Source: a virus. Taken from it: a stretch of 7,319 bases of DNA. A program made the position numbers and the translations under genes. Positions 1 to 7,319 of this stretch are shown here, piece after piece. The notes under the pieces were generated by a model. That model saw nothing but the letters and a program-made list of their open reading frames with translations, ran no database searches and was not told the origin of the DNA. Each line of letters opens with the position of its first letter. Positions within the stretch are counted from its first letter, which is position 1. The stretch is taken from positions 1-7,319 of IMG/VR virus record IMGVR_UViG_3300002520_000061. One strand, given 5' to 3'.

Positions 1-99
1 GGCCGAGCATTAAACATAAACACTCGACATTATGCGCAGTCACCACACATTGTGTTGTGGCCGCGCTTCCAGGTACGCGCTTTTACAGGATGAAATGCT
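1..99. repeat. Left copy of the exact 99-nt terminal direct repeat (circularisation overlap)
   Basis: Bases 1..99 (ggccgagcattaaacataaacactcg...ggatgaaatgct) are identical to 7221..7319. The window ends exactly at the end of the repeat. Confidence 0.95.
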
Positions 100-129
100 G
101 ATGCCGATAAGTAGCTTTATCGGCATCAG
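98..129. other. Perfect 13-bp-stem hairpin in the large intergenic region (packaging signal or minus-strand origin candidate)
   Basis: ctgatgccgataa (98..110) pairs perfectly with ttatcggcatcag (117..129), leaving a 6-nt loop. On the coding strand it lies just downstream of the last morphogenesis gene and its terminator. Confidence 0.5.
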
Positions 130-136
130 AGATAAC

Positions 137-169
137 AAAGAAAACGGCGTGGCCCAAGGGCCACGCCGT
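137..169 (-). terminator. Rho-independent terminator after the Zot/pI-like gene
   Basis: An 11-12 bp GC-rich stem, acggcgtggcc (144..154) with ggccacgccgt (159..169), has a 4-nt loop. On the minus strand it is followed by TTTTCTTTGTT (plus-strand aacaaagaaaa, 134..144). It sits 28 nt past the stop codon at 197. Confidence 0.75.
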
Positions 170-196
170 CGGCGTTAGTGCGCTCAGCCCGCTATC

Positions 197-1528
197 TCAC
201 GCCGACGGCGTGGTTAGACTGGCTAAGGTGGTGACGTTCTCGGGCATGGCAAGGCCACCATTTTGTTTGGGGGCTGGCGTCACAATACGAGGCTGACAGT
301 TAACAGTAATGGCGCGGCCATTGCGGTCTGTGACCACCGAATAGCAATCGCCCAGGTAATCGACCTTATACCCAAGGTTCACCAAGTCATCAGAGTTAAA
401 CGCAAGTTCATCCTTGCCACGCATCCCTGTAAACAAAACCAGCCCCTCAAATCGTCCCGCATAAATCGCGCCACTGGCACCAGTGCTAAACAGCTCGGCA
501 ACGCCATACGGCATCACGAAAGCAGACTGAGGGCTCCCGTTGCCAGCATTCGAGTTAGAAACAGACACAGCCACAGGATCAGCAGACGCAGCAGAACCTT
601 CTTGAGCAGCCACAGGCTGCCCACCTTCAGGTAATGCAGGGTCAGCCGCAAACTTTGCATAAAGAAGCCAGCCCCAGCAGACAAACACGAGCGGTATAAC
701 GACAAACAGGACAAAACGAACCTTAAACGAGGATAACGGGCCGCTAGATTGCCCAGATTTGGTAACAGAGCCTGTTTGAGTGGACTTATATAGCATGTGC
801 ACAGCCAGCGGCACACGCCGCTTAAACGTGACGCTCTGCTTGGTCGGGATGCCGTTTTCAAGGGGGTTGTGCTCATAGATGCGGGGTTTCCGTCTGGAAA
901 GAAAAAACGAATCTTTGCTGGAATAAGCAAAGGCCACTTCACAGCAGGCCCGAACGGGCCGAGGGATAGAGGTAATATCGGGCGTTGCAAACACCACATC
1001 CCAGTTATAGTGACGGTGACGCATAAACGATTCTTTGGGGCTGGTCGGATACATAATCTGGCCCCGTTCATCGAAAACCACCCTCCCCGTATCATCGGTG
1101 TCACACTCTTCAATAGTCTCGGGTTTATAACTGGCAAGAACGTCTTTAAAGAGCTGGATAAAGTCAGCAGGTAACACATTGCTATAGGTATCAATCGGCT
1201 TTAGGTTGTATTCCTCCTGCCCCTTAAATACATCTCTATCATATATATCCTGACATTCATCAATAAAGACGAATGCGCCAATGGGCATCCAGTGATGCCA
1301 GCGCCGCCAGAGTTCTTGATATTTCGGGTCTTGCGAACTGACGCGAAACAATTTCGCGGATTCGGGGAACTTCTCACCGAGAAATTCCTCGATTTTATGC
1401 TTGGGCCACATGCCCGCCGCGTTCGTGACAACGAGGCGGCCAGCGCGAAGCGCAGGAAGCAGGCGAAACCAGATTACAGAGCTGGATTTATAAGAGCCGT
1501 TGTGACCGTGTTCAATGACGATTGCCAT
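197..1528 (-). CDS. Zot/pI-family phage assembly ATPase (zonula occludens toxin-like P-loop NTPase)
   Basis: 443-aa ORF. The N-terminus MAIVIEHGHNGSYKSS carries a Zot-type Walker A (GxxGSYK[ST]). FVFIDECQ is a Walker B candidate. A single TM segment (FVLFVVIPLVFVCWGWLLYA) is followed by a C-terminal domain of about 150 aa. It is the last gene of the structural block and forms a TAAATG junction with the upstream gene. Confidence 0.88.
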   Translation of the reverse strand: MAIVIEHGHNGSYKSSSVIWFRLLPALRAGRLVVTNAAGMWPKHKIEEFLGEKFPESAKLFRVSSQDPKYQELWRRWHHWMPIGAFVFIDECQDIYDRDVFKGQEEYNLKPIDTYSNVLPADFIQLFKDVLASYKPETIEECDTDDTGRVVFDERGQIMYPTSPKESFMRHRHYNWDVVFATPDITSIPRPVRACCEVAFAYSSKDSFFLSRRKPRIYEHNPLENGIPTKQSVTFKRRVPLAVHMLYKSTQTGSVTKSGQSSGPLSSFKVRFVLFVVIPLVFVCWGWLLYAKFAADPALPEGGQPVAAQEGSAASADPVAVSVSNSNAGNGSPQSAFVMPYGVAELFSTGASGAIYAGRFEGLVLFTGMRGKDELAFNSDDLVNLGYKVDYLGDCYSVVTDRNGRAITVNCQPRIVTPAPKQNGGLAMPENVTTLASLTTPSA

Positions 1529-1930
1529 TTACCACCCCATGATATTCATGACAAAGCGTGTGATGTAGACGTTAATCAACAGGTTAAGCGCATTGGCAAA
1601 ACCAAGCTCTTGAAGACCCCAACGAACGCCGCTAGGTAATTGCGATATGGCGGCTGAGAGATAAGCCGCGATATTAATATCAGTCGCTATTTGCTGGGCA
1701 ACCAGATAGGCAAACTTAATCATATGGAGCTTGGCTGTTAACATCGCCAAGGTGTAATACTCTACACCCCACGCAACAAAACGATGAAAAATGCCGGGCA
1801 CTTCCTCAGTGATGGCATAGTGCAAATCGTTGAGTTGCTGGCCTACATAGTCCAAGAAAGATGATGAATCATCAGCAGCAAAAGCAAGCGATGGCAGAAA
1901 GAACAGAGCCCAAATAATCAAGTTACGCAT
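1529..1930 (-). CDS. pVI-like minor coat / virion-cap protein (position of ace in CTXphi)
   Basis: 133-aa ORF with a hydrophobic N-terminus (MRNLIIWALFFLPSLAFA) and further hydrophobic segments. It sits between the pIII-like and pI-like genes. It overlaps the pIII-like stop by 8 nt (ATGCGTAA). The function is assigned by synteny only. Confidence 0.6.
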   Translation of the reverse strand: MRNLIIWALFFLPSLAFAADDSSSFLDYVGQQLNDLHYAITEEVPGIFHRFVAWGVEYYTLAMLTAKLHMIKFAYLVAQQIATDINIAAYLSAAISQLPSGVRWGLQELGFANALNLLINVYITRFVMNIMGW

Positions 1931-3179
1931 TTTTACGACCCCCCATCAAAATTGAAAAAGCAAGCAAAACAGCAAGGAACCAAATGGCCATTTTAGGGCC
2001 GGAATTAAAAAACAATTCGAGGTTAGATTTGCCACTCAAATCAACCCTAACGCCATTTATATCGTGATAATCATTATTGTAAGTGCCAGTGATAGTTAAT
2101 TCCTCAGGCGCAAAAACTGACTTAACATCATTCATAGCGTCAGATATTTCAGTGTCTTTATTCTCTATTTGTTTTTTAACGTCATCAATGGATTCGGTAG
2201 AAAACACCTTTGACAAGGCAGAGCCAGAACTGCCGGATGGCTTGTTAAAAGAACAGAGAGGCCCCTCGCATGGTTTATCACCCCCCTCGCCTCCCCCTTG
2301 ACCATTACGCAATAGCTCCTCAATAGATTCAAGCGCAGAAACCATATTGCCAGCTTGCGCAGCTGACATCTCAGTATTCTGACCTATTTGATGCAATTTC
2401 CCCCATAAGCCGTCAGTGTTACTAACAACGCGAAGATTTGCATTGATTAACGAGTTAAGATGGTTTTGAATTTGCGCCAAATCAAAACTGTAATCAGGTG
2501 AGCTCATATTCTCAAGCTGACCAATTAATCTACGTTCTTTAGCATCCCAATAATCGGAGCTTAGAACCTGCTTGTTATTAAGCGTGGTCAGGTGAAAATT
2601 GGTTGTTTCGCCAGTTTGAGAAATTGAACCTGTTATACCCTGAGTATAATTTCCAATACGCTTTAAATCCTGACTGGATTCAGAGAGGTATTTAGAGGCA
2701 TCAAAAGAAAAAGATTCAAACTTCCTTGAGAAATCCTTAATGTCTCCAGAAACTTTTTCAGAGGCCACACGAACGTTATTTGAAACAACGTTAAAGCCCT
2801 TACCTAAATCGGCATGGCTATTTTGACCAACCCACAGCTCGCCCATATTAACAACACCATTGCCACCTGTGGCGGTGCCATCCTCACCAACAGGAGGGTT
2901 TGGATCTTTCCCAGGGCCGTTATTATCAGTAGGGGTACACTCTTGGCCGCTAGAAAAGTAAGGGCCGCGGGTAGGAGGAACGGCGTTAGGCAGCTCAACA
3001 CAAACAGAGCCATTATCACCCCCACCGCAATAGGCATAACAACCGCCCAGTGTAGAACCCGAATAAACATAGCAAATGGGGTTTGGTGAAACGATATGAG
3101 CAGAGCCGTAATTTACGCCGGGGGCACAGCCAGCGAACGCGGCAAAAGGGGAAAAAAACAAAGGTAAGAGATAACGCAT
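1923..3179 (-). CDS. pIII-like adsorption / minor coat protein; start re-assigned to Met13 of the listed ORF
   Basis: 418 aa counted from the ATG at 3179 (MRYLLPLFFSPFAAFAGC...). It has a signal peptide ending AFA/GC. The N-terminal domain carries 6 Cys and is followed by a Gly/Pro-rich linker (TDNNGPGKDPNPPVGEDGTATGGNG) and a second Gly-rich stretch (NGQGGGEGGDKPCEGPLC). The C-terminal TM anchor is MAIWFLAVLLAFSILMGGRKNA. AGGTG lies 5 nt upstream of 3179. The listed start at 3215 lies just upstream of the terminator hairpin, so that reading frame would run through it. Confidence 0.8.
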   Translation of the reverse strand: MRYLLPLFFSPFAAFAGCAPGVNYGSAHIVSPNPICYVYSGSTLGGCYAYCGGGDNGSVCVELPNAVPPTRGPYFSSGQECTPTDNNGPGKDPNPPVGEDGTATGGNGVVNMGELWVGQNSHADLGKGFNVVSNNVRVASEKVSGDIKDFSRKFESFSFDASKYLSESSQDLKRIGNYTQGITGSISQTGETTNFHLTTLNNKQVLSSDYWDAKERRLIGQLENMSSPDYSFDLAQIQNHLNSLINANLRVVSNTDGLWGKLHQIGQNTEMSAAQAGNMVSALESIEELLRNGQGGGEGGDKPCEGPLCSFNKPSGSSGSALSKVFSTESIDDVKKQIENKDTEISDAMNDVKSVFAPEELTITGTYNNDYHDINGVRVDLSGKSNLELFFNSGPKMAIWFLAVLLAFSILMGGRKNA

Positions 3180-3192
3180 GGCGGCACCTAGT

Positions 3193-3213
3193 AAAAAGGG
3201 GGCCGAGGCCCCC
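3193..3213 (-). terminator. Rho-independent terminator between the coat-gene block and the pIII-like gene
   Basis: The minus strand reads GGGGGCC-TC-GGCCCCC followed by TTTTT (plus strand aaaaa 3193..3197, gggggcc 3198..3204, ggccccc 3207..3213). An attenuating terminator after gene VIII is a known Ff feature. Confidence 0.75.
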
Positions 3214-3217
3214 ACAT

Positions 3218-3298
3218 TCAGGAGGTGAACACCCCCGACAGAAACGCAGCCCCAAACACAAACGCGCCAGTGGCTGCTAGGATGGCGGCTACGAGCAT
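3218..3298 (-). CDS. Unlisted 26-aa hydrophobic micro-ORF (small minor-coat or membrane peptide candidate)
   Basis: My translation of the minus strand gives ATG CTC GTA GCC ... TCC TGA = MLVAAILAATGAFVFGAAFLSGVFTS*. The ATG lies 3 nt after the coat stop and in the same frame (TAA GTC ATG). The ORF ends 4 nt before the terminator hairpin. No clear SD is present, so coupled re-initiation is plausible. Confidence 0.45.
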   Translation of the reverse strand: MLVAAILAATGAFVFGAAFLSGVFTS

Positions 3299-3301
3299 GA
3301 C

Positions 3302-3529
3302 TTACTTACGCAGCCAGCTAACGATCATGCCAAGGGCAAAGCCGAGCGCAGCAACACCGATAACACCAGCAGTCACAAGACCGTAGTTTTCCTGACCAGT
3401 TGCAATAGCCGCTTCGATTGCAGTCTTGGTATCCGCAAAAGCGGGCGCGGCCATCAGAGAGGCAGCGGCCACTGCGGGAACGGTCGCTTTTTTCATGCCA
3501 GCGGCAAACAGCTTATTAATCTTTTTCAT
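3302..3529 (-). CDS. Major coat protein (pVIII-type) precursor
   Basis: 75 aa. The signal peptide ends AAPAFA|D. The roughly 43-aa mature peptide is DTKTAIEAAIATGQENYGLVTAGVIGVAALGFALGMIVSWLRK. It has an acidic N-terminus, a hydrophobic core and a basic C-terminus, the classic inovirus coat layout. A GAGGG RBS lies 7 nt upstream. An alternative start is Met12 at 3496. Confidence 0.9.
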   Translation of the reverse strand: MKKINKLFAAGMKKATVPAVAAASLMAAPAFADTKTAIEAAIATGQENYGLVTAGVIGVAALGFALGMIVSWLRK

Positions 3530-3545
3530 GATATTTCCCTCAAAG

Positions 3546-3803
3546 TTAACGACTTATCTTTCTAGCGATAAGACCAGTAAAATAACCTGCCAAAAACAGC
3601 AGGATAAAATACAGAACAAACATGCCGAAATATTCGGGGTCAAACCCGAATAAATCGGTTACACCTAATACCTTGTCTAATTCCGTTGGAGTTAGCAGGG
3701 TATAAACTAACGACCCGTCCGCGCTTATTTGCGGGCAAACATCTAGATGCTCTACCCGAGTTATCCCTGTAGTGGAGTCAACAAAGAAGCACGGACGAGA
3801 CAT
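3546..3803 (-). CDS. Small membrane protein (possible pVII/pIX-equivalent minor coat or morphogenesis protein)
   Basis: 85 aa with one C-terminal TM segment (FGMFVLYFILLFLAGYFTGLIA) and a basic tail. It forms a TAATG overlap with the upstream gene. It sits immediately upstream of the major coat gene. Confidence 0.6.
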   Translation of the reverse strand: MSRPCFFVDSTTGITRVEHLDVCPQISADGSLVYTLLTPTELDKVLGVTDLFGFDPEYFGMFVLYFILLFLAGYFTGLIARKISR

Positions 3804-4120
3804 TAGAATTTGGCCTCTTTGGCTTGAGCACCTACAGAGGATTTACCAACGATACCAGAAACAATGTTACGGGTAAGGTCAGTCGGATTAGGCTGCACCT
3901 CCACATCAACCATTTCACCAATCTGACACATGGCAAATTGATTAAGGGCTGATGGCTCTAAATCAACCTCTTTAACTTCATAACCAAAGCCATGATAATT
4001 CATGGTCGCGGTAGTTACGGGCTTGATAGGTACAGCATAAGAAAACATGCACATGTCATATTGCTTGCCTGCTTTTGATGTACCGTGACGACGGGCGGCA
4101 CCAATAAACATTACTTTCAT
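3803..4120 (-). CDS. pV-like ssDNA-binding protein candidate
   Basis: 105-aa soluble protein in the gene V position, after the replication genes and before the coat genes. An AGGAA RBS lies about 9 nt upstream. The function is assigned by size and synteny only. Confidence 0.55.
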   Translation of the reverse strand: MKVMFIGAARRHGTSKAGKQYDMCMFSYAVPIKPVTTATMNYHGFGYEVKEVDLEPSALNQFAMCQIGEMVDVEVQPNPTDLTRNIVSGIVGKSSVGAQAKEAKF

Positions 4121-4139
4121 ATTTTAGGTTCCTATATTT

Positions 4140-4152
4140 GGTCACTGTTACT
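4140..4152. promoter_or_regulatory. Motif copy GGTCACTGTTACT in the 44-bp gap upstream of the pV-like gene
   Basis: It is intergenic (4121..4164), about 20 nt upstream of the pV-like start codon and next to its RBS. Confidence 0.6.
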
Positions 4153-4164
4153 TTATTTGGGCTG

Positions 4165-4587
4165 CTATTCCAATATGCGGCCATCTGGGTATTGCAGGAA
4201 TGCGCTAACAGAGTTCGCGTAAATCCCCACGTAAAACTCCTCTGCTTTGTCTTTATCGGCAAAGCGTAGGTGTTTAATCTCGGCGTCCATGGTTTCCCAT
4301 TGGACTAAATACGGGCCGTGTTCGGCGATTAACTTGTTACGTTCGGCGGCCATGCGAACATCAATACACATCTGGCGATTACAATAACCGTCACTGTTAC
4401 CGTTAATCGGCAGGTAACAACAAGGACAAATAGATTGAAGGGTCATCGCCTCCCCCAGTTTGCCAGGTGAAATTCGAATACTGGAACGAGACGGGCCACA
4501 GAACCGAACGGCGGGCAATCTCATTGCCTGCAATATATGGGCGTGTTTGGTCGCGCCCCGATGCTCAATGGATAAATAGTCAATCAT
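4165..4587 (-). CDS. Hypothetical Cys-rich protein in the RstB position
   Basis: 140-aa ORF with an ATGA overlap onto the Rep stop. A GAGGG RBS lies 7 nt upstream. It contains CPCC-x14-C-x4-C (CPCCYLPINGNSDGYCNRQMC), a possible zinc-ribbon-like element. A shorter form could start at Met48 (4446, preceded by GGGGGAGG). Confidence 0.6.
   Translation of the reverse strand: MIDYLSIEHRGATKHAHILQAMRLPAVRFCGPSRSSIRISPGKLGEAMTLQSICPCCYLPINGNSDGYCNRQMCIDVRMAAERNKLIAEHGPYLVQWETMDAEIKHLRFADKDKAEEFYVGIYANSVSAFLQYPDGRILE
4389..4401. promoter_or_regulatory. Motif copy CGTCACTGTTACC inside the 140-aa ORF
   Basis: It matches 12/13 to GGTCACTGTTACC. Here it is read in a different frame (GNSD in INGNSDGY). 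An extra half-site, GGTAACA, lies at 4413..4419. Confidence 0.5.
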
Positions 4588-5753
4588 GCTACGACCCTCA
4601 GTTGAAGTTTGGGCATTTGATACCAGCTAGGCGGCAAACATTCCTGACGATGAATCTCGGTGCAGGAAACCATTTTTACAGGGCTGAACTGGCTAATATT
4701 GCACGGACGAGCAATATCAATTCCAATTTTCCGAAGGCGGGCGCGGTGTGTTTGGATTTGCCTTCTTTCGAAGTCAAACTGATGGCCATGCATCCACTGA
4801 AAGGCATAAATAGCAGTGGTGTTTGCTGCTCGAGCAGAATCAACTATTCCAGCAGAAAGTAATTGTGTGGCAATGGTTTCAAATTTCATATTAGACACGC
4901 TCAGTTTTTTGTCTAGGCTGGTAAACTCCGACATTACGGTTTCGAGTCTGGAGTAGTCTGATTTGCCCCAATATTGCAAACCTTCACGCTGCAAATAACG
5001 ATATTTAAATTTCAGCTCATAGCGAACCAAGCCGACCGACCAACAATAGTCAATCACACGCTGCAAATGCTCAACTTCATCTGACTCTGAGCCAAAAGCC
5101 TTGGTTACTTTAGGTAATGAATGCAACTCCAATTCATTACCCTTGGCATACACACAAGGATATATTAACGCCGAATTATTTTTCTTTGACTTCCAATCAC
5201 AACCATATCCATTTGTGAATAAGTGAGGGATTGAGTTTCTATATGAAAGTGTAGATACCGCCGATATATATTTTTTTTCGTTCTCAGCACCAACAGTAAA
5301 GTTTTTAGTGGTATGCAACCCTTTGATGATGGCTCCATCAGCACCAATGCGCTGCATAGGGGAGCCACCTTCAAAAGAATCGTCTCTATAAAAAATTTGC
5401 GTGCACTTGGTGAACTGGGGAACGAAATCAAAACGCCCGTATACCTCTCTCAAGATCTCATTGAATTTGTGAACACACTGGTCAACGGTCGTAAATCCCC
5501 ACAGATTTTCGAGGCGACCCCAGCGGCTGGGATTGCCGCTCATAAAAAGACGATTCCCAGATGCGCGAATGAGCACGGAGTCACAGAAAGAACCCTTGTG
5601 ACTGTAGGCAGGAGACGCAATGCCATTGTCTTGAACAACCTCCCCTTGCTCGACAACAAGGCGAAGGTACGCATTGCCATCAAGCAACGGTAAAGGCTGG
5701 GCAAACGTCTGTTCTATCTCAAGCCAATCGAAGAACACAAAAGTTCCATCCAT
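4584..5753 (-). CDS. Rolling-circle replication initiator, gpII / RstA (Phage_CRI-like) family
   Basis: 389 aa. The N-terminal FFDWLEI and the SGNPSRWGRLENLWGF segment resemble, by recall, the (I)DWL and SGNPSK..GHN.FG / ASPAKVLQGHNVFG motifs of filamentous-phage initiators. It is the first gene of the operon and is divergent from the HTH regulator. Confidence 0.8.
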   Translation of the reverse strand: MDGTFVFFDWLEIEQTFAQPLPLLDGNAYLRLVVEQGEVVQDNGIASPAYSHKGSFCDSVLIRASGNRLFMSGNPSRWGRLENLWGFTTVDQCVHKFNEILREVYGRFDFVPQFTKCTQIFYRDDSFEGGSPMQRIGADGAIIKGLHTTKNFTVGAENEKKYISAVSTLSYRNSIPHLFTNGYGCDWKSKKNNSALIYPCVYAKGNELELHSLPKVTKAFGSESDEVEHLQRVIDYCWSVGLVRYELKFKYRYLQREGLQYWGKSDYSRLETVMSEFTSLDKKLSVSNMKFETIATQLLSAGIVDSARAANTTAIYAFQWMHGHQFDFERRQIQTHRARLRKIGIDIARPCNISQFSPVKMVSCTEIHRQECLPPSWYQMPKLQLRVVA

Positions 5754-5844
5754 GCATACTGTTTGGTGGCTTTATACACCTGAGTCCTCATGCATGCAAC
5801 ACTGAGTGTTAAAATGTGCACACAAGGACACAAAGGGCCGCATA
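5754..5844. promoter_or_regulatory. Divergent promoter/operator region between Rep and the XRE regulator
   Basis: On the minus strand, TTGCAT (5799..5794), a 17-nt spacer and TATAAA (5776..5771) lie just upstream of the Rep ATG. On the plus strand there is an extended -10, TGTTAAAAT (5807..5815). The inverted repeat AACAC-tga-GTGTT (5798..5810) overlaps both promoters. The palindrome TGTGCACA lies at 5816..5823. Confidence 0.55.
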
Positions 5845-6174
5845 ATGCAGCACATAAGCGATAACATAAAACGTATACGCAATGAGGCAGGGCTGAGTCA
5901 GCAGGAACTTGCAGATAGAGCTGGGATATCAAAATCCCAAATCTGGAGGCTGGAAAAGGGAGAGCAAAAAAACCCCACCCTAGAAACACTCATACCGATA
6001 TCAACGGCACTTGGCGTATCTCTAGACGAGATCGTGTTTGGGGAAGAATCAAAAAACGCCACCTATTTATCAAAGGCGATAGAAGAGCTGGAGCCTGAAG
6101 ACAGGAAAGCTATACGGAAAATCATTAGGGGGTGGATCCTGATGAGTCACAATGAAAAGATTTTTGAAGAGTAA
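5845..6174 (+). CDS. XRE/Cro-CI-family helix-turn-helix transcriptional regulator (phage repressor candidate, RstR-like position)
   Basis: 109 aa counted from the ATG at 5845. MQHISDNIKRIRNEAGLSQQELADRAGISKSQIWRLEKGE is a textbook HTH_XRE N-terminus. AAGGG lies 8 nt upstream. The listed ORF begins at a GTG (5806) inside the predicted promoter and is unlikely to be the true start. Confidence 0.85.
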   Translation: MQHISDNIKRIRNEAGLSQQELADRAGISKSQIWRLEKGEQKNPTLETLIPISTALGVSLDEIVFGEESKNATYLSKAIEELEPEDRKAIRKIIRGWILMSHNEKIFEE

Positions 6175-6219
6175 AGATTGAGCAGTGCCCAAGGGGGGAT
6201 ACCGCGGGTTATTGCGGTA

Positions 6220-6248
6220 AAGTCCGGGAGTCACTGAACCCCGGACTT
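6220..6248. other. 9-bp-stem hairpin downstream of the XRE gene
   Basis: aagtccggg (6220..6228) pairs with cccggactt (6240..6248), leaving an 11-nt loop. The loop contains gtcactg, a half-site of the recurrent motif. Confidence 0.5.
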
Positions 6249-6259
6249 CAAAACGCCCC

Positions 6260-6289
6260 AAAACCCCCTGCCCCGCGCTGGGGGTTTTT
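6260..6289 (+). terminator. Rho-independent terminator of the XRE gene, possibly bidirectional
   Basis: AAAACCCCC (6260..6268), an 11-nt loop, then GGGGGTTTT (6280..6288) plus a further T. The A-tract and T-tract flanks allow termination in both directions. Confidence 0.65.
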
Positions 6290-6610
6290 CATGCCCAAGA
6301 CATAGCCAAAGACCAAGACAAGGCGAAGACCTCCACATGGGCTTGTCTACGACACGAAACAGGGGTTGTTACCACACGCGCCCCATAGCCTTCGGCTGGT
6401 CGCTCTGCCTGTGGCCTCAAAGACTGGTTTTGCAGGAAGGGGGGGTATTGCAGCTTTGCCTCTACGAGATCATGAATCACATCGAGGAGGCCGACACATC
6501 GGGGAATAGGTCCTCGGGACGCAAGCGCCCTGCGGAACGGCGTTTATCATGGCTCGCGCTGCTCACCATATGCAGGGAGGCAGCAGCGGATGGCGGCGGG
6601 ATATGGGGCC

Positions 6611-7102
6611 CTACGTGAGGGCCGCATCAAACACGCACTTAGCCAGGCTATCGAGGTCGGCGGCAGGCAACCCCAACGATTCGGGGGCGTTGGCCAGCAG
6701 TGTCTTGAGCGTGGCCATGTGGGCACGATTAAAGGTAACTGTTACCGTATCTTGAGCCTTGCGGGCGCGGTATCGGGCTTGTTTCTGTGCCGGGGTGAGC
6801 GCCTTGCCAGTCTTCGGGCGACCAACTGGGCGCTTTTTGGGAATGAGGTCGAGCTGTATTTCGGTCACTGTTACCTTATTTGCTACGTCATTTTGAGCGG
6901 TTTTTACGTCATTCTCGGGAACCCACAAGGCGAACTCTGGGCCGTTCTTGGGAGCGCCGGCAAACTTCCCAGTGCTCTTGATAACCTTCTTCTCGACCCC
7001 ACAAATCAGCACTATCCAGTGCTGTTTGTTCTGGGTCAAAACAGGCCAATGAGTACCCTCTTCGCAACCGATGCCGGATTTTGTAACAAGCAGTCTATCC
7101 AT
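6611..7102 (-). CDS. Hypothetical 163-aa protein with a basic putative DNA-binding segment; accessory/regulatory gene candidate
   Basis: A GAGGG RBS lies 8 nt upstream of the ATG at 7102. The composition looks like a natural protein, unlike the 178-aa antisense ORF. The central motif is KKRPVGRPKTGKALTPAQKQARYRARK. I recognise no family with confidence. A 27-bp palindrome lies 13 nt upstream of the start codon. Confidence 0.65.
   Translation of the reverse strand: MDRLLVTKSGIGCEEGTHWPVLTQNKQHWIVLICGVEKKVIKSTGKFAGAPKNGPEFALWVPENDVKTAQNDVANKVTVTEIQLDLIPKKRPVGRPKTGKALTPAQKQARYRARKAQDTVTVTFNRAHMATLKTLLANAPESLGLPAADLDSLAKCVFDAALT
6734..6746. promoter_or_regulatory. Motif copy GGTAACTGTTACC (perfect 6-1-6 palindrome) inside the 163-aa ORF
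   Basis: The core is identical to the core of the 27-bp palindrome. It encodes VTVT in DTVTVTF. Confidence 0.6.
6863..6875. promoter_or_regulatory. Motif copy GGTCACTGTTACC inside the 163-aa ORF
   Basis: It encodes VTVT in NKVTVTE. The extended match to the 4140 copy is tatttcGGTCACTGTTACCTTATTTG against tattt-GGTCACTGTTACTTTATTTG. Confidence 0.6.
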
Positions 7103-7114
7103 GATTTTGCCCTC

Positions 7115-7141
7115 TATTTATGGTAACTGTTACCATAAATA
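7115..7141. promoter_or_regulatory. 27-bp perfect palindrome containing the motif GGTAACTGTTACC (operator or origin candidate)
   Basis: tatttatggtaac-t-gttaccataaata has two 13-nt arms that are perfectly complementary. The core motif is at 7122..7134. It lies between the 163-aa ORF start and dif-like site A. Confidence 0.7.
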
Positions 7142-7149
7142 AAGTGATG

Positions 7150-7177
7150 GCTGCGCATAATGGGGTTTATATTCAAT
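7150..7177 (+). other. dif-like XerC/XerD site A (candidate attP half)
   Basis: gctgcgcataa-tggggt-ttatattcaat. By recall, E. coli dif is GGTGCGCATAA-TGTATA-TTATGTTAAAT. The XerC arm matches 10/11 and the XerD arm 9/11, with a 6-nt spacer. Confidence 0.6.
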
Positions 7178-7220
7178 GACACATACGTGTGCCCCCTGCC
7201 CCTTCGGGATTATCGCAGGG

Positions 7221-7319
7221 GGCCGAGCATTAAACATAAACACTCGACATTATGCGCAGTCACCACACATTGTGTTGTGGCCGCGCTTCCAGGTACGCGC
7301 TTTTACAGGATGAAATGCT
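7221..7319. repeat. Right copy of the exact 99-nt terminal direct repeat
   Basis: Identical to 1..99. No flanking non-phage DNA lies outside the repeats. Confidence 0.95.
7229..7260 (-). other. dif-like XerC/XerD site B, inverted relative to site A (also present as 9..40 in the left repeat copy)
   Basis: The plus strand reads attaaacataa-acactcgaca-ttatgcgcagt. Its reverse complement is actgcgcataa-tgtcgagtgt-ttatgtttaat. The XerC arm matches 9/11 and the XerD arm 10/11 to the recalled dif. The spacer is a non-canonical 10 nt, so the site is not a normal duplex dif site on its own. Confidence 0.55.

Follow-up and report, generated by a model that had tools for sequence, protein, structure and literature searches.

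Phage CTXphi of the El Tor type carries two dif-like sites, attP1 (AGTGCGTATTA-TGTGGCGCGGCA-TTATGTTGAGG) and attP2 (AATGCGTATTA-TACGCCA-TTATGTTACGG), which are located between ctxB and rstR at a distance of about 90 bp from each other (PMC4246890, PMC3089051). The (+) strand of CTXphi forms a forked hairpin of about 150 nucleotides, attP(+), on which XerC alone exchanges one pair of strands, and replication finishes the reaction (Val et al. 2005, Das et al. 2010, as reviewed in PMC4246890, PMC3089051). Phages CUS-1phi of Escherichia coli and Ypfphi of Yersinia pestis, both filamentous, are listed as CTX-type members and are said to have attP features for direct single-strand integration at dif (PMC4246890, PMC3089051). 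Here, a comparable region is described in a 7,319-nucleotide stretch of virus DNA (IMG/VR record IMGVR_UViG_3300002520_000061, positions 1–7,319), which was analysed as a whole and is called the window. Positions 7144–7266 are most probably the attachment site of a CTXphi-type IMEX (a mobile element that exploits Xer to integrate) that infects Aeromonas. No paper describing CTX-type attachment sites in Aeromonas was found; zot genes that do not lie on a recognisable prophage have been reported in an Aeromonas genome paper (PMC6955901).

The first 99 bp of the window are an exact direct repeat of the last 99 bp (1–99 = 7221–7319), and therefore the window is a circular inovirus genome of 7,220 bp with a 99-bp assembly overlap. 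The attachment region contains two inverted dif-like sites, A and B, separated by 51 nucleotides. The arms and central regions of both sites were placed by dif register, and the parts of the region are as follows.

7144–7266, minus strand (putative folding strand): whole forked-hairpin attachment region, attP(+), delimited by inverted repeats, folds and covariation.
7150–7177, plus strand: site A, the counterpart of CTXphi attP2, with 11+6+11 geometry.
7150–7160, plus strand: XerC arm of site A, GCTGCGCATAA.
7161–7166, plus strand: central region of site A, TGGGGT, 6 nucleotides.
7167–7177, plus strand: XerD arm of site A, TTATATTCAAT, the more degenerate of the two XerD arms.
7260–7229, minus strand: site B, the counterpart of CTXphi attP1, with a 10-nucleotide spacer.
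7260–7250, minus strand: XerC arm of site B, ACTGCGCATAA.
7249–7240, minus strand: central region of site B, TGTCGAGTGT, 10 nucleotides.
7239–7229, minus strand: XerD arm of site B, TTATGTTTAAT.
9–40, minus strand: second copy of site B, which is due to the 99-bp assembly overlap and is not a third site.
7144–7149, no strand assigned: extension of the stem base past the XerC-binding arm, pairing with 7261–7266.
7261–7266, no strand assigned: partner of the stem-base extension, pairing with 7144–7149.
7191–7223, minus strand: apical hairpin 1, GCCCCCTGC / GCAGGGGGC, with a perfect 9-bp stem (7191–7199 / 7215–7223) and an inner CCC/GGG stem.
7179–7190, minus strand: apical hairpin 2, ACAC-GTAT-GTGT on the minus strand (ACAC-ATAC-GTGT on the plus strand), seen in the folds.
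7250/7249, minus strand: predicted XerC crossover point, placed by the right prophage end of locus L015 and the breakpoint of locus L005.

Much of this anatomy had been proposed by a model from the letters of the window (the sequence-only reading). An inverted-repeat search reproduced its coordinates of sites A and B, the 51-nucleotide gap and the 12-bp XerC stem. The outer arms (7144–7162 / 7248–7266) are 19 nucleotides long and 89% complementary with two mismatches, which bears out the predicted stem base down to 7144/7266; the 10-nucleotide spacer of site B (7249–7240) and the 9-bp apical stem, which is perfect, were also found as proposed. The outer arms include the perfect 12-mer CTGCGCATAATG at 7151–7162 with its complement at 7248–7259. 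This 12-mer has three matches, the third being the assembly duplicate, against 0.05 expected, and the dif-like pattern GCGCATAA N6-10 TTATRTT was found three times against 0.01 expected by chance. The inner arms (7165–7178 / 7228–7241) are 86% complementary. The XerD-type stem that the sequence-only reading had drawn between 7166–7177 and 7229–7240, with 10 of 12 positions paired, is present; however, its two mismatches are G·T wobbles on the minus strand (A·C on the plus strand). The proposed 3 × 7 bubble also exists, but it can be read as 2 × 6, since G7241 and C7165 can pair and this pair covaries in relatives. The reading recognised that the apical 51 nucleotides have a stem of their own but missed the second apical hairpin; hairpins 7179–7190 and 7191–7223 together form a three-way junction at the apex.

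Neither of the spacers, the 10-nucleotide TGTCGAGTGT or the 6-nucleotide TGGGGT, equals the centre of Aeromonas dif, TGTATA. The bases beside the XerC arm nevertheless match it, with TGT in site B and TG in site A. By analogy with CTXphi, sites A and B would be expected to make poor duplex substrates.

The relatives of the window place it in Aeromonas. Neither 50,697 phage records nor 5,426 E. coli genomes gave a match in a megablast search with the whole window, after which an enterobacterial origin was dropped. Of the nucleotide collections searched, only that of plasmids pointed to Aeromonas, with Aeromonas “plasmids” of about 7 kb, and a genome scan returned two loci on Aeromonas genome contigs. 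Further prophages were reached through homologues of Zot (a gene I homologue), which come from A. veronii, A. hydrophila, A. cavernicola and A. salmonicida, and an unannotated relative in GenBank is Aeromonas phage MBa-2020a (CP062802). Because all relatives are from Aeromonas, the host is taken, on these sequence relationships, to be Aeromonas and not a member of Enterobacterales. The sequence-only reading had hinted at an enterobacterial host range from the XerC arm; the arm is indeed unlike that of Vibrio dif1, but the enterobacterial host did not hold, and the Vibrio cholerae XerC arm given there as GCGCATTA is GCGTATTA in the literature. The same site B as in the window is present in loci L006, L009, L016, L107, L109 and L110.

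The dif site of A. hydrophila has been predicted to be ACCGCGCATAATGTATATTATGTTAAAT, located 20 kb from the GC-skew switch (Carnoy and Roten 2009, PMC2731167). The chromosomal dif of Aeromonas at the prophage junctions, ACCGCGCATAA TGTATA TTATGTTAAAT, equals this published site, and its identification as the dif of the replication terminus rests on the match to the published prediction (PMC2731167). Relatives with 71–88% Zot identity (loci L003, L010–L013 and L015) are integrated at dif and share one structure. Their left end (attL) consists of a host XerC arm, a long spacer, a XerD arm, the loop and an inverted site A, so that the long-spacer counterparts of site B form attL. At their right end (attR), the phage XerC arm leads into the centre and XerD arm of dif (TGTATA TTATGTTAAAT; TCTATA in A. 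cavernicola), so that a dif is regenerated. Site A is intact and internal, beside attL, in all of these prophages. The refutation test set by the sequence-only reading, prophages away from dif or junctions outside 7150–7260, was run on the relatives: they are at dif and their junctions are inside.

Three tandem copies (L010–L012) occupy about 2.21–2.25 of 4.58 Mb in the A. veronii chromosome CP157875.1. Every copy is preceded by ACCGCGCATAA-TGTCGTTCAGCA-TTATGTTGAGG and an inverted short-spacer site, and the last copy is followed, at about 2.24 Mb, by the exact published dif and then by lon-like, fabA and rmf genes. The prophage of A. hydrophila (L013, LYZG01000001) has the left structure of the A. 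veronii type, the same dif and the same host genes. In A. cavernicola (L003), attL is at 4650, the inverted site A at 4800 and attR at 11446. The left end has the host-type XerC arm AATGCGCATAA and a 9-nucleotide spacer, and the right end (11446–11473) has the phage-type arm ACTGCGCATAA followed by TCTATA-TTATGTTAAAT. The two XerC arms differ between host and phage (AAT versus ACT), with the host version in attL and the phage version in attR.

A further integrated relative is a tandem pair on a metagenome contig (L015), the Zot of which is 88% identical to that of the window. The junction between its copies has a 10-nucleotide spacer and an inverted site A, and its right end reads ACTGCGCATAA-TGTATA-TTATGTTAAAT followed by an Aeromonas-like flank. 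The 70 nucleotides before ACTGCGCATAA in this attR match the minus strand of the window at 68 positions, and the sequence then continues as dif, TGTATATTATGTTAAAT. Since the identity extends up to the XerC arm and then gives way to dif, the crossover maps to window 7250|7249. The position is resolved only to the arm and the first three central bases, because TGT is common to both partners. The dif centre and XerD arm stay together at the right junction, and therefore the crossover is on the XerC side.

The regenerated dif centre of A. cavernicola is TCTATA, as compared with TGTATA in A. hydrophila and A. veronii. The resident prophage has TGTGCGTGA in site B and TCCAGA in site A, and the second base of dif is matched by the site A side and not by site B.

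The prophage structure bears directly on the idea that duplex site A is the true attachment site, similar to attP of VGJphi or TLCphi, and that site B is incidental. Site A has the normal 11+6+11 geometry, and its first central bases, TG, match dif. However, every prophage keeps site A intact and internal beside attL, and at the right end it is phage sequence from the flank of site B, not of site A, that borders dif. In addition, site A has the more degenerate XerD arm, TTATATTCAAT, and no XafT-like Xer activator was found in the scans of the main open reading frames (ORFs). For site A, the role of a VGJ-type duplex attP was rejected because of how the prophages of the relatives are built, and almost no credence can be given to it.

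Folding of 7144–7266 on both strands, a check that the sequence-only reading had suggested, gave the predicted hairpin at about −33 kcal/mol in each case. As single-stranded DNA, the two strands reach −32.8 and −33.2 kcal/mol (z-scores of −6.6 and −6.8), and none of 200 shuffles was as stable as the hairpin of either strand. Long-spacer sites were sought in viral contigs, of which 87 gave hits. In the full set of fetched loci, an inverted short-spacer partner lies within 260 nucleotides of 68 out of 100 such sites, and the partnerless sites are mostly at contig ends. The spacers of the long-spacer sites measure 9–13 nucleotides, and the public viral contigs contain at least three classes of loop length, of about 34, 46–55 and 91–95 nucleotides.

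Thirteen members of the short-loop class to which the window belongs were used to calculate an RNAalifold consensus. It has 38 pairs, which form the XerC-arm stem, the bubble, the XerD-arm stem and the three-way junction with two hairpins, and 14 of the 38 pairs show compensatory changes. The aligned cells are paired at 97.1%, compared with 87.8% in column shuffles (none of 500 reached the observed value) and 35–50% with slid partners. Apical hairpin 1 is kept in the relatives with compensatory changes, and the stem of apical hairpin 2 covaries as ACAC/GTGT, ACCC/GGGT, TCCC/GGGA and CCCC/GGGG. In free and tandem forms of other lineages, pairing continues for 3–6 bp past the XerC-binding arm in lineage-specific sequences (GTGGTG/CAYCAC, GCCACA/TGTGGC and TGCG/CGCA).

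The packaged (+) strand of inoviruses is, as a general rule, the coding strand of the structural genes. The structural genes of the window are all on the minus strand, and therefore the minus strand would be the packaged one. The pairing of 97.1% refers to this strand, which has site B as its top strand; on the complementary strand it is 89.4%. Of 43 elements that allowed an assessment, 36 have the strand with site B 5′–3′ as their coding strand and 1 has it as the opposite strand; the DNA folding energy is lower on the strand with site B 5′–3′ in 45 of 52 elements, by a mean of 2.2 kcal/mol. At imperfect arm positions this strand has 84 G·T and 7 A·C oppositions in 49 distinct elements; the search pattern fixed site B to the consensus, which alone predicts a G·T excess of about 9:6, and the covariation and G·T counts include related sequences, so that their significance is overstated. 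For these two reasons the counts are supportive but short of formal proof. Within these limits, covariation and strand asymmetry support a folded single strand over two independent duplex sites.

Like the limits of the counts, several observations weigh against the interpretation of the region as a CTXphi-type attachment site. The window's own strands differ by only 0.4–0.8 kcal/mol. An integrated copy of the exact window phage was not found by exact-protein look-ups and a metagenome scan: the exact Zot sequence returned only one 6.3-kb contig, the exact product of ORF163, the gene next to site A, returned no copy on record, and a metagenome search with the window's own site B yielded just two short free forms, with no attL among the hits. 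The prophage junctions would be identical whether the substrate was a folded single strand or duplex site B. Finally, plasmid pAerXII (L002, NZ_MK962692) has an intact site yet was deposited as a plasmid, and therefore the presence of the site does not force integration.

The identity of the junctions is an argument for an alternative in which XerC and XerD recombine double-stranded site B of the replicative form with dif, as in VGJphi, and site A is a bystander or serves to sequester recombinases or block excision. The junctions are exactly those that duplex site B and dif would give, and the same interpretation was the first to be offered for CTXphi, before single-strand integration was shown (PMC3089051). 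However, spacers of 9–13 nucleotides set the two recombinases out of register, and the 12-bp attP1 of CTXphi is, according to the review literature, not a substrate as a duplex. A model based on the duplex alone does not predict the inverted partner present at 68 of 100 sites, with most of the others at contig ends, nor stems that covary outside the binding consensus, nor mismatches that are G·T on the packaged strand. The duplex alternative therefore has a low probability.

A different alternative is that the hairpin mainly serves another single-strand function, as a complementary-strand origin, packaging signal or terminator, in a purely episomal phage, and that its likeness to dif is a relic. 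In Ff phages, hairpins of the (+) strand serve as the minus-strand origin and the packaging signal, which provides a precedent. The two apical hairpins are conserved and covary, yet have no stated role in Xer recombination, and several relatives were recovered as circles of about 7 kb or as “plasmids”. By contrast, both arms closely match Aeromonas dif, the TGT and TG bases for XerC exchange are kept, and close relatives are integrated at dif. A search with Rfam found nothing in the window, and no terminator-like or promoter-like site was found inside the hairpin; since the zot terminator (170–143) is upstream of it, the hairpin was rejected as a terminator, promoter or known RNA family. Plasmid p6_SCLZS52 of A. 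caviae (L001, NZ_CP091182), the nearest nucleotide relative with about 90% identity over 70% of the window, replicates and persists without the region, which speaks against an essential role in replication. A diverged site was looked for in this plasmid, but the whole attachment region is simply absent (2426–2594), and the zot terminator runs into operator-like repeats. This natural deletion fits the recovery of the plasmid as an episome. A purely episomal phage with a relic site is thus very improbable, whereas a second function of the apical part is compatible with an attachment site of the CTXphi type.

In the mechanism proposed for such a site, the substrate of integration would, by analogy with CTXphi, be the packaged (+) single strand, which is the minus strand of the window. 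On this strand, sequence and comparison show site B annealed to the complement of site A; in the folded site the former supplies the top strand and the latter the bottom strand. The predicted fold contains a duplex XerC-binding arm (7260–7250 with 7150–7160), a partly unpaired central region, a duplex XerD-binding arm with two G·T wobbles (7239–7229 with 7167–7177) and the three-way junction as a cap. Host XerC and XerD would bind this pseudo-dif and bring it into synapsis with chromosomal dif, ACCGCGCATAA TGTATA TTATGTTAAAT, as in CTXphi. Following the same precedent, XerC would cut both top strands at the boundary of the arm and the central region (7250|7249) and swap them. The swap would be stabilised by TGT, where the phage strand enters dif, and by TG, where the dif strand lies on the complement of site A. 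XerD would not act, because the central bases on its side do not match, and replication would resolve the pseudo-Holliday junction.

At the left end of the product neither attL nor site A would be usable as a duplex site, and the right end would be a working dif. For the window phage, attL is expected to read ...GCGCATAA TGTCGAGTGT TTATGTTTAATGCTCGG after non-phage sequence, and attR is expected to read CAATGTGTGGTGACTGCGCATAATGTATATTATGTTAAAT. Integration would be one-way, and further elements could stack at dif. The XerC-side crossover and the tandem arrays are the only indirect support for a single-strand substrate, XerC-only catalysis with both recombinases required, resolution by replication and irreversible integration. 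New phage genomes would have to be produced by rolling-circle replication across tandem copies, with modules shuffled at the crossover point.

Such shuffling is visible among the relatives. L005 (6243–6348 compared with window 7260–7150) is identical to the window in Zot and in the flank as far as ...CATAATGTC; beyond that point it has a different spacer, XerD arm, long loop and regulatory module. In L009, a site B module of the window type stands in an array context, joined to a different upstream element whose homologue in the chromosomes of A. veronii and A. hydrophila lies to the left of attL. The cassette of attP and regulatory genes is exchanged in L005 exactly at the predicted XerC crossover, and the whole family is strongly mosaic. 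This is the pattern that would be expected from rolling-circle replication across neighbouring prophages, as described for CTXphi.

The remainder of the window contains the genes of an inovirus.

197–1528, minus strand: Zot, gene I homologue (Pfam PF05707, E 4.5e-39), the final gene ahead of the attachment site.
170–143, minus strand: zot terminator, upstream of the hairpin.
1529–1930, minus strand: gene-6-like DUF2523 protein (Pfam).
3302–3529, minus strand: major coat protein (PHROG 1859).
3803–4120, minus strand: RstB-family protein (Pfam PF07459, E 4e-9; PHROG 929, E 4e-27).
4584–5753, minus strand: G2P/RstA-type replication protein (Pfam).
5806–6174, plus strand: divergent helix-turn-helix (HTH) repressor (Pfam).
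6611–7102, minus strand: ORF163, the first gene past the attachment site on the packaged strand, with no Pfam match and weak matches to PHROGs of unknown function.

The order of the genes, with an HTH repressor, RstA-like replication protein, RstB and Zot, is the CTXphi layout minus the toxin genes. ORF163 is part of the swappable cassette. Scans of the main ORFs with Pfam and PHROGs found neither an integrase, as the sequence-only reading had stated, nor a XafT-like (DUF3653) Xer activator. RstB of CTXphi is a single-strand-binding protein that is required for integration, and the RstB-family protein may assist integration of the window phage in the same way.

A palindrome, GGTAACnGTnACC, is repeated at 6734–6746, 6863–6875 and 7122–7134, with weaker copies at 4140–4152 and 4389–4401 (eight strand-matches in the window, compared with 0.04 expected). 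One of the copies adjoins site A, just upstream of ORF163. The motif is also present at 2500–2575 of p6_SCLZS52 and at 4815–4885 of L003, and probably serves a phage regulator as its operator.

Window 103–124 contains a small hairpin, GCCGATAA-N6-TTATCGGC, which lies between the zot terminator and the site B XerC arm. The hairpin was found in 43 of 111 fetched loci, including L003 (4272 and 11413), L010 (3007), L013 (2798) and L009 (5315). Among these occurrences are one in the unrelated Rep_trans-type element and one 360 nucleotides upstream of attL in A. cavernicola.

The latter element, which is a second filamentous-phage-like element and encodes a Rep_trans replication protein and RstB, is found in A. 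veronii and A. hydrophila in the opposite orientation, immediately to the left of the CTX-type prophage.

L010:1–3750, L013:1–3540, L009:2839–6060 and L041:503–8823, opposite orientation: Rep_trans-type second element.

A site with a 7-nucleotide spacer in L041, ATTGCGCATAA TGCGACG TTTTGTTAAAT, may be a VGJ-type junction of this element. Aeromonas dif therefore hosts mixed IMEX arrays, as dif1 of V. cholerae does.

A further role of the apical three-way junction is conceivable but rather unlikely. It could be a functional module, acting as a nucleation clamp, a site for a host factor or a priming site of the complementary strand that times the access of XerC and XerD before conversion to the duplex. 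Together with the conserved GCCGATAA-N6-TTATCGGC hairpin it would then provide CTX-type sites with additional, hitherto undescribed cis-elements, and the cassette of attP and regulator would be swapped between unrelated Aeromonas elements at the XerC crossover.

With this region, the way in which the cholera-toxin phage integrates, as a single strand and through XerC only, would be extended to Aeromonas, which includes pathogens of fish and of humans. The mechanism itself is known and its understanding is unchanged by the new example, which will not surprise specialists. It gives exact prophage borders together with Aeromonas dif, which is useful for annotation and for work on the mobile elements of Aeromonas, and it explains tandem and mixed arrays at the replication terminus and mosaicism at one precise point. 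The preference for G·T over A·C at imperfect stem positions marks the folding strand and could serve the automatic annotation of such sites.

Among the Aeromonas records, pAerXII and MBa-2020a have the same phage backbone and two-site architecture as the window, and p6_SCLZS52 has the backbone but not the attachment site. None of the three has an annotated attachment site; their deposits are labelled as plasmids or are an unannotated partial phage.

VGJphi- and TLCphi-type elements share with the window the use of host XerC and XerD, integration at dif and the lack of an integrase. However, they have a single duplex site of 28–29 bp and integrate reversibly, whereas the window has two inverted sites. 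The attP of the VGJ type, a single duplex of about 29 bp, is split into attL and attR; by contrast, the short-spacer site of the two inverted sites here stays intact. TLCphi needs XafT, and its XerD acts first, at a site whose XerD arm is degenerate, whereas no XafT-like protein was found here and the crossover is on the XerC side, with the dif centre and XerD arm staying together on the right.

The window differs from CUS-1phi and Ypfphi in loop length, spacer lengths and arm sequences. A class with a 34-nucleotide loop (L026:956–1063 and about 20 similar viral contigs), which has GGTGCGCATAA arms and spacers of 10–11 and 5 nucleotides, is probably of the CUS-1 type. Matches to this class were obtained in 638 of 5,426 complete E. 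coli genomes, at 372 places on chromosomes and 475 on plasmids, the latter of which may be partial hits to plasmid Xer sites. By nucleotide sequence, the remainder of the window bears no similarity to E. coli genomes.

CTXphi is the closest described system. Both phages have two inverted dif-like sites, with a long centre of 12 bp in CTXphi and 10 in the window and a short centre of 5–7 and 6, respectively. The predicted (+)-strand folds, together with the comparison of relatives, have the XerC arm, central bubble and XerD arm of a CTX-type site. In both, the end of the core genes (zot in the window) precedes the region and an rstR-like regulatory module follows it; the long-spacer site runs 5′–3′ along the coding strand; and the central regions begin with bases that match the host dif. 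Both lack an integrase and have RstA, RstB and RstR-like genes. CTXphi and the relatives of the window also share a dead attL with attP2 on the left, a regenerated dif on the right and tandem arrays. The window differs in its host, Aeromonas, and in the lack of toxin genes. Its XerC arm is GCGCATAA, of the Aeromonas and E. coli type, rather than GCGTATTA; its loop has 51 nucleotides instead of about 90, folded into a compact three-way junction with two covarying hairpins; and its XerD arms, TTATGTTTAAT and TTATATTCAAT with two G·T wobbles, are different. In the long-loop Aeromonas relatives, however, the XerD arms are identical to TTATGTTGAGG and TTATGTTACGG of CTXphi. Because both arms are identical, the attachment module is judged to be homologous to that of CTXphi and not merely similar, and the window belongs to a shorter variant, with a 51-nucleotide loop and different XerD arms.

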